Source: Escherichia coli (lineage in GTDB: Bacteria > Pseudomonadota > Gammaproteobacteria > Enterobacterales > Enterobacteriaceae). Taken from it: a DNA stretch of 64,000 nt. Of the stretch, positions 35,582-36,140 are shown piece after piece. The stretch lies in assembly GCF_048403405.1 (NCBI RefSeq), contig NZ_CP183129.1. One strand, 5' to 3'. The stretch's first letter is position 1. Every line of letters begins with the position of its first letter. The notes beneath the pieces are model-generated. The model was given only the letters and a program-made list of their open reading frames with translations. It searched no databases and was not told the DNA's origin. Both the position numbers and the translations under genes were made by a program.

Positions 35582-35958
35582 GAAGCTGACCAGACAGTCG
35601 CCGCTTCGTCGTCGTCCTCTTCGGGGGAGACGGGCGGAGGGGAGGAAAGTCCGGGCTCCATAGGGCAGGGTGCCAGGTAACGCCTGGGGGGAAACCCACG
35701 ACCAGTGCAACAGAGAGCAAACCGCCGATGGCCCGCGCAAGCGGGATCAGGTAAGGGTGAAAGGGTGCGGTAAGAGCGCACCGCGCGGCTGGTAACAGTC
35801 CGTGGCACGGTAAACTCCACCCGGAGCAAGGCCAAATAGGGGTTCATAAGGTACGGCCCGTACTGAACCCGGGTAGGCTGCTTGAGCCAGTGAGCGATTG
35901 CTGGCCTAGATGAATGACTGTCCACGACAGAACCCGGCTTATCGGTCAGTTTCACCTG
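35582..35958 (+). ncRNA. rnpB: RNase P RNA component (M1 RNA)
   Basis: Sequence GAAGCTGACCAGACAGTCGCCGCTTCGTCGTCGTCCTCTTCGGGGGAGACGGGCGGAGGGGAGGAAAGTCCGGGCTCCATAGGGCAGGGTGCCAGGTAACGCC... recognised as E. coli M1 RNA, about 377 nt. Confidence 0.95.
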
Positions 35959-36140
35959 ATTTACGTAAAAACCCGCTTCGGCGGGTTTTTGCTTTTGGAG
36001 GGGCAGAAAGATGAATGACTGTCCACGACACTATACTCAAAAGAAAGCGGCTTATTGGTCAGTTTCACCTCTTTTAACGAAAACCCGGCAGCGTAAACTG
36101 GCGGGTTTTTGCTTTTTGGAGCATAGTGTAAGATGAATAA
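35909..36140 (+). repeat. tandem direct repeats (about 101 and 122 bp, plus a partial third copy) starting inside the 3' end of rnpB, each carrying a terminator-like hairpin
   Basis: GATGAATGACTGTCCACGAC occurs at about 35909 and 36010, with a degenerate copy GATGAATAAAT at about 36132; each unit contains CGGYTTATYGGTCAGTTTCACCT and a GC hairpin followed by a T-run. Confidence 0.7.

Follow-up and report, generated by a model that had tools for sequence, protein, structure and literature searches.

In Escherichia coli K-12, Reed and Altman reportedly described, in PNAS in 1983, three-and-a-half 113-bp repeats 3′ of rnpB, the gene of the RNase P RNA (M1 RNA), and are said to have noted open reading frames in them. 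Why should a part of an essential RNA gene be repeated directly behind it, and what do the copies do there? We addressed this question in a 64,000-nucleotide (nt) stretch of E. coli DNA (hereafter referred to as the window), in which a preliminary description, based on the letters of the sequence, had pointed to tandem, terminator-bearing repeats at the 3′ end of rnpB. Here we report that this feature is real, that the array was already known from K-12, and that the window carries a copy-number variant of it that is largely ordinary. We describe the anatomy of the array and its polymorphism in E. coli, its occurrence in other genera and the use of a sequence within it as an attachment site by integrative islands, and we weigh what may have produced and maintained it.

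Anatomy of the repeat units and their terminators

The rnpB gene occupies positions 35582–35957 on the plus strand, with the end of garK (35549) on its 5′ side, and gives a full-length match to the Rfam model RF00010 (317.5 bits). It is 376 rather than 377 nt long, with a run of seven G residues shortened to six at positions 35686–35691, and this missing G is its sole difference from the K-12 gene. All 16 loci examined in this respect (K-12 and 15 other Escherichia) have seven G residues in the run. Because rnpB is essential and otherwise invariant, the shortened run is most likely a homopolymer error of the assembly; it could also be a private mutation.

The 227-nt interval between rnpB and the convergent gene yhaC, together with the last 50 nt of rnpB, splits into units at AGATGAAT. 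Unit 0 (positions 35908–36008, plus strand; 101 nt) begins inside the gene, 50 nt before its 3′ end, and comprises these final 50 nt, the 3′ trailer, the terminator T1 and the spacer GGAGGGGCAGAA; it contains the 3′ strands of P2, P4 and P1 of M1 RNA. Unit 1 (36009–36130, plus strand; 122 nt) is a diverged copy. Its first 21 nt (block 1) exactly repeat the start of unit 0 and are followed by a 12-nt insert, ACTATACTCAAA (36030–36041, plus strand), which is absent from rnpB and is evident in the alignment of the two units. After the insert come an A-rich variant of the P4 3′ strand, with AGAAAGCGG in place of the rnpB sequence AGAACCCGG, the P1 3′ strand with a single C-to-T change relative to rnpB, the terminator T2 and the spacer GGAGCATAGTGTA. 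A 22-nt stub of a third unit, AGATGAATAAATATCTACGGTA (36131–36152, plus strand), matches block 1 at 16 of 22 positions, stands exactly in phase with the units and has no GC hairpin. Within the P1 3′ strand of rnpB lies a 12-bp sequence, CTTATCGGTCAG (35938–35949, plus strand), hereafter referred to as the core, whose copy in unit 1, CTTATTGGTCAG (36051–36062, plus strand), carries one substitution.

The similarity between the units exceeds chance by a wide margin. In a global alignment of units 0 and 1, 88 of the 94 ungapped columns are identical (93.6%), and the 35 gap columns stem from the 12 nt inserted behind CCACGAC and from a longer loop in the hairpin. The alignment score of 91 compares with −58 ± 10 for shuffles of unit 1 and with a maximum of −8 among 2,000 random 122-nt windows, and besides the two full units the stub is the sole 22-mer so close to block 1 on both strands of the 64 kb. 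The self-alignment thus reveals a significant repeat that extends well beyond a single terminator hairpin. Tandem Repeats Finder reported no repeat at the rnpB 3′ flank, because only about 2.2 copies with large indels are present, and its null result is no evidence against the repeat.

Each full unit contains a hairpin followed by a T-tract. In T1 (35967–35996, plus strand; hairpin type A), the stem AAAAACCCGC / GCGGGTTTTT encloses a TTCG loop and leads into the T-tract TTTTTGCTTTT, whereas in T2 (36080–36117, plus strand; hairpin type B), the stem AAAACCCGGCAG / CTGGCGGGTTTT encloses a CGTAAA loop and leads into the T-tract TTTTTGCTTTTT; the stems are followed by GCTTTT and TGCTTTTT, respectively. 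Both were recovered as inverted repeats in the window, and their predicted folds (−19.4 kcal/mol for T1 and −23.2 kcal/mol for T2) are equally stable relative to shuffled sequences (z −4.4 each). They thus have the GC-rich stem-loop and the immediate U-run of Rho-independent terminators. On the minus strand, the T1 hairpin folds with −13.9 kcal/mol and is followed by UUUUUACGU, and the T2 hairpin folds with −18.7 kcal/mol and is followed by UUUUCGUU. The rnpB terminator T1 has been measured as an intrinsic terminator in reporter constructs, in which its outer A/U stem raises termination efficiency (PMC3643576). A consensus scan for promoters and terminators missed both hairpins, apparently because the A/U stem extensions leave only four T residues in the 8-nt tail window, and found no promoter consensus in or ahead of the units. 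The insert region of unit 1, ACACTATACTCAAAA (36028–36042), is 87% complementary to the spacer behind T2, TTTGGAGCATAGTGT (36115–36129), and the predicted duplex in the window has an energy of −17.8 kcal/mol (z −4.1).

These data bear out most of the preliminary description: the repeat starts about 50 nt inside the 3′ end of rnpB, a 122-bp variant copy follows directly, a degenerate partial third copy ends the array, and two terminator structures are stacked in series. The span that it gave, 35909–36140, is correct to within 1 nt on the left and falls about 12 nt short on the right, and the hairpin and T-run that it ascribed to every copy are present in units 0 and 1 and absent from the stub.

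The array in E. coli and in other genera

In MG1655, unit 0 is followed by three 113-nt units, REP elements and the same stub as in the window, the third unit having a decayed hairpin that is fused to a REP pair and to a remnant of a further unit. The window array therefore agrees with the repeats reportedly described by Reed and Altman in its locus, its start inside the mature RNA, its sequence blocks, its terminator in each unit and its terminal stub. It differs from them in having one extra unit instead of three and a period of 122 instead of 113 nt, with a longer type-B hairpin and another spacer; unlike the K-12 array, it is free of REP elements, and its conserved blocks carry two substitutions, CCC to CTC in the insert and C to T in the core. 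Thus, of the features by which the K-12 array can be recognized, location 3′ of rnpB, homology to the 113-bp units and a hairpin with a T-run in each full unit are found in the window, whereas the 113-bp period and the approximately 3.5 copies are not. Because period and copy number vary among E. coli strains, we regard them as properties of strains that do not define the array family. K-12-like genomes match the window at positions 35880–36121 with 93% identity.

The preliminary description had linked the feature to the K-12 repeats and had expected copy number and sequence to differ, and the comparison with MG1655 confirms it on both points. Its further proposal, that the difference could alter 3′ processing of the RNase P RNA precursor, is unlikely to be correct: unit 0 agrees with K-12 at each of its 101 nt, which cover the mature 3′ end, the trailer and T1, and normal M1 3′ processing should therefore stay unchanged. 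Only transcripts that read through T1 would carry sequence that differs from K-12.

The array region was matched in 5,425 of 5,426 complete E. coli genomes, with one to eight matching places per genome. Among the loci that we read, the number of extra units is zero in O157:H7 and strains 98232 and 1105, one in the window, CFSAN018748 and 1517k, two in O145, three in K-12 and four in JNE132847, and unit lengths are 113, 114, 120 and 122 nt. When the BLAST ranking was sampled at even intervals, alleles of the window type made up about 3–5 of 60 rows (roughly 5%), and about 30% of the sampled rows have no full extra unit, including those with the ST131-type deletion of yhaBC; most of the remaining rows are K-12-like arrays with REP. 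The stub, sometimes slightly altered, was found in the examined E. coli loci that keep the yhaC 3′ end, even where a full extra unit is missing.

Two hairpin types occur in these arrays, type A (CCCGC-TTCG-GCGGG) and type B (CCCGCCAG...CCGGCGGG). Type B is located in unit 1 in the window and forms the terminator of rnpB itself in ECCNB20-2 and A41. The two types swap between unit 0 and later units in both E. coli and Salmonella, as expected from unequal crossing-over. Strain YL3 carries unit 1 of the window with a REP block inserted in its T-run, indicating that the window allele and the REP-bearing alleles are related by one insertion or deletion. In strain 98232, the spacer that follows T2 in the window stands directly after T1. 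In the REP-bearing arrays of K-12 and other strains, the REP pair breaks a unit terminator directly after GGCGGGTTT and is followed by a decayed unit remnant, ATCAGTTTCAAACCCGCG...TTTTTGCTTTTGG, so K-12 holds traces of more units than its three clean ones. In E. coli A41, a copy of IS621 (IS110 family) lies inside a REP element of the rnpB array.

On the far side of the array, yhaC (36185–37373, minus strand) is convergent with rnpB and is a pseudogene by alignment to the intact CFSAN018748 gene, with an extra T in a T-run at 36682 that shifts the frame and a G-to-A change (plus strand) at 37028 that creates a stop codon. An AT-rich inverted repeat (36159–36188; strand not applicable) overlaps the yhaC stop codon (36185–36187), and its fold is weak (−6.5 kcal/mol, z −1.5). 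Directly after the array, the GC content falls from 0.55–0.60 to 0.29–0.36 (36200–38800) across yhaC, yhaB and tdcR, and in other Escherichia species and in Salmonella the region upstream of tdcA directly adjoins the array. From this, yhaBC has the look of AT-rich DNA inserted next to the array. In ST131-type strains, most of yhaBC is deleted. A literature search found no paper naming both rnpB and yhaC, and a keyword search of the literature found no E. coli typing scheme (VNTR or MLVA) based on the array.

To follow the units beyond E. coli, we scanned one genome per species for an exact match to the unit-specific 23-mer junction AAAGAAAGCGGCTTATYGGTCAG. The scan returned 16 loci, 15 of them directly 3′ of rnpB and the sixteenth a 289-bp contig with units only. 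They belong to other Escherichia species, Citrobacter, Yokenella, Cedecea, Buttiauxella, Mixta, Enterobacter-labelled and other Enterobacteriaceae isolates, and two mislabelled assemblies. Mislabelled public entries with enterobacterial rnpB arrays include a 289-bp contig named ‘Microvirga antarctica’ and a 299-kb contig named ‘Chryseobacterium sp. 18061’. BLAST searches revealed one unit in Salmonella Kentucky, six in Salmonella Senftenberg, where A and B hairpins are interleaved, none in Salmonella houtenae, and one full and one truncated unit, with AAAGAACGCGG and AAAGAAGGCGG, in Klebsiella pneumoniae. Klebsiella aerogenes has only a partial block 1, located after the terminator. Insert-bearing units thus stand directly 3′ of rnpB in Salmonella, Klebsiella, Citrobacter, Cedecea, Yokenella, Buttiauxella and Mixta, which is a new finding of this study.

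The post-core tail of the units (TTTCACC or CTTCAAC) agrees with that of rnpB in the same genome, and the unit hairpin usually resembles the terminator of that rnpB. When unit 0 is compared with a later unit of its own genome over the 62 nt behind the core, identity is 66–98% (median 85%), compared with a mean of 69% between genera. This within-genome similarity of tails and hairpins is what concerted evolution by unequal crossing-over predicts. Hairpin sequences vary among genera, and the GC stem and T-run are always kept. The insert and the adjoining A-rich stretch, of which the search pattern fixed only 8 nt, have a between-genus mean identity of 0.90 in the main insert class, compared with 0.71 for the next 62 nt. 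The 12–13-nt insert itself is identical, or one or two substitutions apart, in Escherichia, Salmonella, Citrobacter, Klebsiella and Yokenella.

We also considered pairing between the insert and the post-terminator spacer as a general structure and rejected it, as in Enterobacter-like genera, Yokenella and others it did not exceed swapped or shuffled controls; the window, strain 1517k and one other lineage do show strong pairing. An RNAalifold analysis of 16 units found no compensatory pairs; MAFFT aligned the unit hairpins poorly, and covariation in the terminators was judged by eye only. Rfam searches at a permissive E-value returned generic terminator-like partial matches and a truncated RNase P match over the units. 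Two Citrobacter loci depart from the usual layout: in Citrobacter sp. Awk 4, a MITE-like, inverted-repeat element of about 130 nt replaces the terminator of one unit, and in C. amalonaticus, the repeating unit is enlarged to about 211–223 nt through inclusion of a REP pair.

Integration islands at the rnpB 3′ end

The flk flagellin islet occupies the rnpB–yhaC interval in 19 of the 5,426 E. coli genomes. As related in PMC3378880 and PMC5422975, this genomic islet of E. coli strains of types H3, H35, H36, H47 and H53 was described by Feng et al. 2008. It carries genes for a tyrosine integrase, a Hin-like recombinase, a flagellin and a fliC repressor. The tyrosine recombinase excises the islet (PMC3378880), and its excision between direct repeats results in one-way flagellar phase variation (PMC3378880; PMC5422975). 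In ECC-1470 and NCTC11121, the attL and attR sites of the islet share the 12-bp core CTTATCGGTCAG. We thus identify this core in rnpB, which is also present in the units, as the attachment site of the flk islet family, a second finding new to this study. In strain EH10-18-47, a site-specific integrase gene directly follows rnpB, and the last bases of the RNA are replaced after GGTCAG; the far end of the islet has been relocated by an IS3-linked rearrangement. Insertion of the islet changes final bases of M1 RNA (T370C and C375A) and takes the normal terminator away from behind rnpB.

The attP site reconstructed from the NCTC11121 islet aligns to rnpB from AGATG, the very point at which the units start, through a CTTCAACTTCTT tail of the Enterobacter type. 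The alignment score of 61 compares with 27 ± 3.3 for shuffles that keep the core, none of 500 being as good. In Cedecea sulfonylureivorans, a 3-kb remnant of the same island family, with PAAR and S-type pyocin/cytotoxic-domain genes and no integrase, sits in the core of unit 1 rather than in rnpB. Its attL is the core of a repeat unit, and its attR resembles a unit, joining the islet left arm and the core to a tail and terminator much like the trailer of the host rnpB. Enterobacter roggenkampii has the same island right arm after rnpB. The cores of the units thus serve as attachment sites, and integration itself yields unit-like repeats.

Integrative islands make direct repeats of the 3′ ends of tRNA and tmRNA genes, and cis-mobilizable elements accrete at their att sites. 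The rnpB array resembles these systems in that the 3′ end of a small-RNA gene is repeated and islands recombine at a 12-bp core inside it. It differs from them in that the repeats in the window are strictly tandem, without island DNA between them, and contain the 12-nt insert, which is not seen in the one island family that we examined. The window holds direct repeats of the core, one of them exact and one matching at 11 of 12 positions, separated by only 101 nt that hold the rnpB tail, a terminator and a spacer; the rnpB–yhaC interval contains neither an integrase nor island DNA. The flk islet, which occupies this same interval in other strains and has direct repeats at its ends, is absent from the window, and its relevance is that it shows how the core of rnpB and of the units is used. 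The idea that the units are simple attR scars of flk was rejected, since the islet left arm has neither block 1 nor the insert. No mobile element with a canonical unit emerged, either from three pattern scans of viral contigs or from BLAST comparisons with phage and plasmid collections; the matches were mislabelled host DNA or due to chance. For instance, the entry ‘Salmonella phage S.Kent 1-2-1’ (OR851195) is Salmonella chromosome from rnpB to the tdc region, and several PLSDB ‘plasmids’ are chromosomes or chromosome fragments.

Function and origin of the array

We propose that the window probably carries an E. coli allele of an old array of stacked bidirectional terminators, whose copy number changes by unequal recombination. 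Each unit copies the P2 and P1 3′ strands of the RNase P RNA and ends in its own predicted Rho-independent terminator. T1 yields the normal M1 precursor, and T2 would stop those polymerases that read through T1. Because each structure is flanked by an A-run and, on its opposite side, by a T-run, they may also stop transcription arriving from the convergent yhaC, and together they would insulate rnpB, a strongly transcribed stable-RNA gene, from this neighbour. Unequal homologous recombination between units would then shift the unit number.

This arrangement has known counterparts. Like tandem terminators of the rrnB T1–T2 type, it has a pair of successive hairpin/T-run terminators behind a stable-RNA gene with strong transcription, and like bidirectional terminators it has an A-run upstream and a T-run downstream of the hairpin between convergent genes. 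By contrast with the rrnB type, the second terminator in the window is part of a duplicated piece of the gene rather than an independent sequence, and the number of terminators in the rnpB array varies among strains. Since about 30% of the sampled E. coli rows are without a full extra unit, the second terminator is dispensable, and any benefit of it should be small or conditional. Serving purely as a back-up terminator would not account for the pattern seen across genera, in which the hairpins diverge and the rnpB-like blocks and the 12–13-nt insert stay conserved.

It is possible, although we tend to doubt it, that the array is a neutral minisatellite that arose from one ancient duplication of the rnpB 3′ end, that persists through nothing but the mechanics of recombination and in which an extra terminator is inconsequential. 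E. coli strains carry from zero to at least four extra units, and Salmonella Senftenberg carries six, at no obvious cost, and the arrays are full of REP elements, with an IS621 copy and a MITE-like insert besides. However, drift should have randomized the insert, and the insert with its A-rich stretch has a higher between-genus identity than the 62 nt that follow (0.90 versus 0.71), the spacers and hairpins of these units being more divergent. Block 1, at 21 nt, may be too short to recombine efficiently, in which case exchanges would take place only on the right side of the insert, leaving no way to lose it. A rather unlikely reading is that the units are attachment-site modules, made or spread by tyrosine-integrase islands that target the core. 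Integration would move the host tail and terminator to attR and, with an rnpB-like left arm in attP, create a new repeat, and the extra cores would act as secondary landing sites that spare the essential rnpB. The 19 islet-bearing genomes with a core common to attL and attR are consistent with this reading, as are the alignment of the NCTC11121 attP to rnpB from the unit start (61 versus 27 ± 3.3), the Cedecea remnant in a unit 1 core with an attR resembling a further unit, and the shared right arm in E. roggenkampii; horizontal spread of the left arm would moreover account for a conserved insert beside host-specific tails and terminators. Nevertheless, the left arm of the flk islet is without the canonical block 1 and insert, and no element in the viral-contig, phage and plasmid collections searched has a canonical unit in its attP. 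Because of these two facts, we keep the attachment-module reading as a rival and not as the main explanation. Furthermore, the regular 113-nt period and the near identity of units within a genome are more simply explained by unequal crossing-over, and no integrase or island separates rnpB from yhaC in the window, whose unit 1 core is substituted. The specific claim that the array was built by the integration and loss of islands, not only by unequal crossing-over, with the insert-bearing left part of the unit representing an attP arm, we regard as unlikely.

Another reading, which we consider improbable, is that every unit is the source of a functional RNA, such as a processed piece of read-through transcript that would bind Hfq by an AAA-AGA-AAG run and the terminator U-tail or would pair with the M1 5′ end. 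In its favour, the blocks resembling the P2 and P1 3′ strands do not vary among genera, the tail agrees with the rnpB of the same genome, three substitutions relative to rnpB create the (ARN)3-like run, and the insert of the window is strongly complementary to the post-terminator spacer (−17.8 kcal/mol, z −4.1). The invariant blocks are, however, explicable by conversion from rnpB; there is no promoter consensus in or ahead of the units and no Rfam family beyond the generic terminator-like matches, RNAalifold detected no compensatory change in 16 units, and the pairing of insert and spacer is absent in several genera. Even less credible, to the point of being very improbable, is the notion that the units encode small proteins from the ATG of AGATGAATG, which would correspond to the open reading frames reportedly noted by Reed and Altman. 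The window does contain open reading frames at 35910–36014 (34 amino acids) and 36011–36136 (41 amino acids), and in E. coli a GGAGG motif lies about 9 nt ahead of the ATG. However, this motif occurs in Escherichia only, some units have CTG, ATA or CAG at the start position, the reading frame ranges from 9 to 76 amino acids across genera, and translation would have to cross the terminator hairpin. Since unit lengths lie 7–9 nt apart (101/108 and 113/120/122 nt), the frame shifts between units. We therefore rejected the small-protein hypothesis, as neither start codon, frame nor length is conserved among homologous units.

Our preferred reading thus remains that of stacked terminators with a copy number set by unequal recombination. 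The window allele taken alone is of little import, as it is a common allele whose M1 3′-maturation region equals that of K-12. The array itself is far older and more widespread than the reported K-12 description suggests. A strain-variable minisatellite directly after the essential and nearly invariant rnpB can mislead annotation, assembly and primer design, and the rnpB 3′ end and its copies form an integration hot spot for an island family that includes a flagellar phase-variation islet. The conservation of the insert across Enterobacteriaceae and this integration hot spot are the only parts that may be worth more work. Should the conservation have a functional basis, be it a protein-binding arm, an RNA element or a safe landing site, it would turn a 40-year-old curiosity into a testable system.
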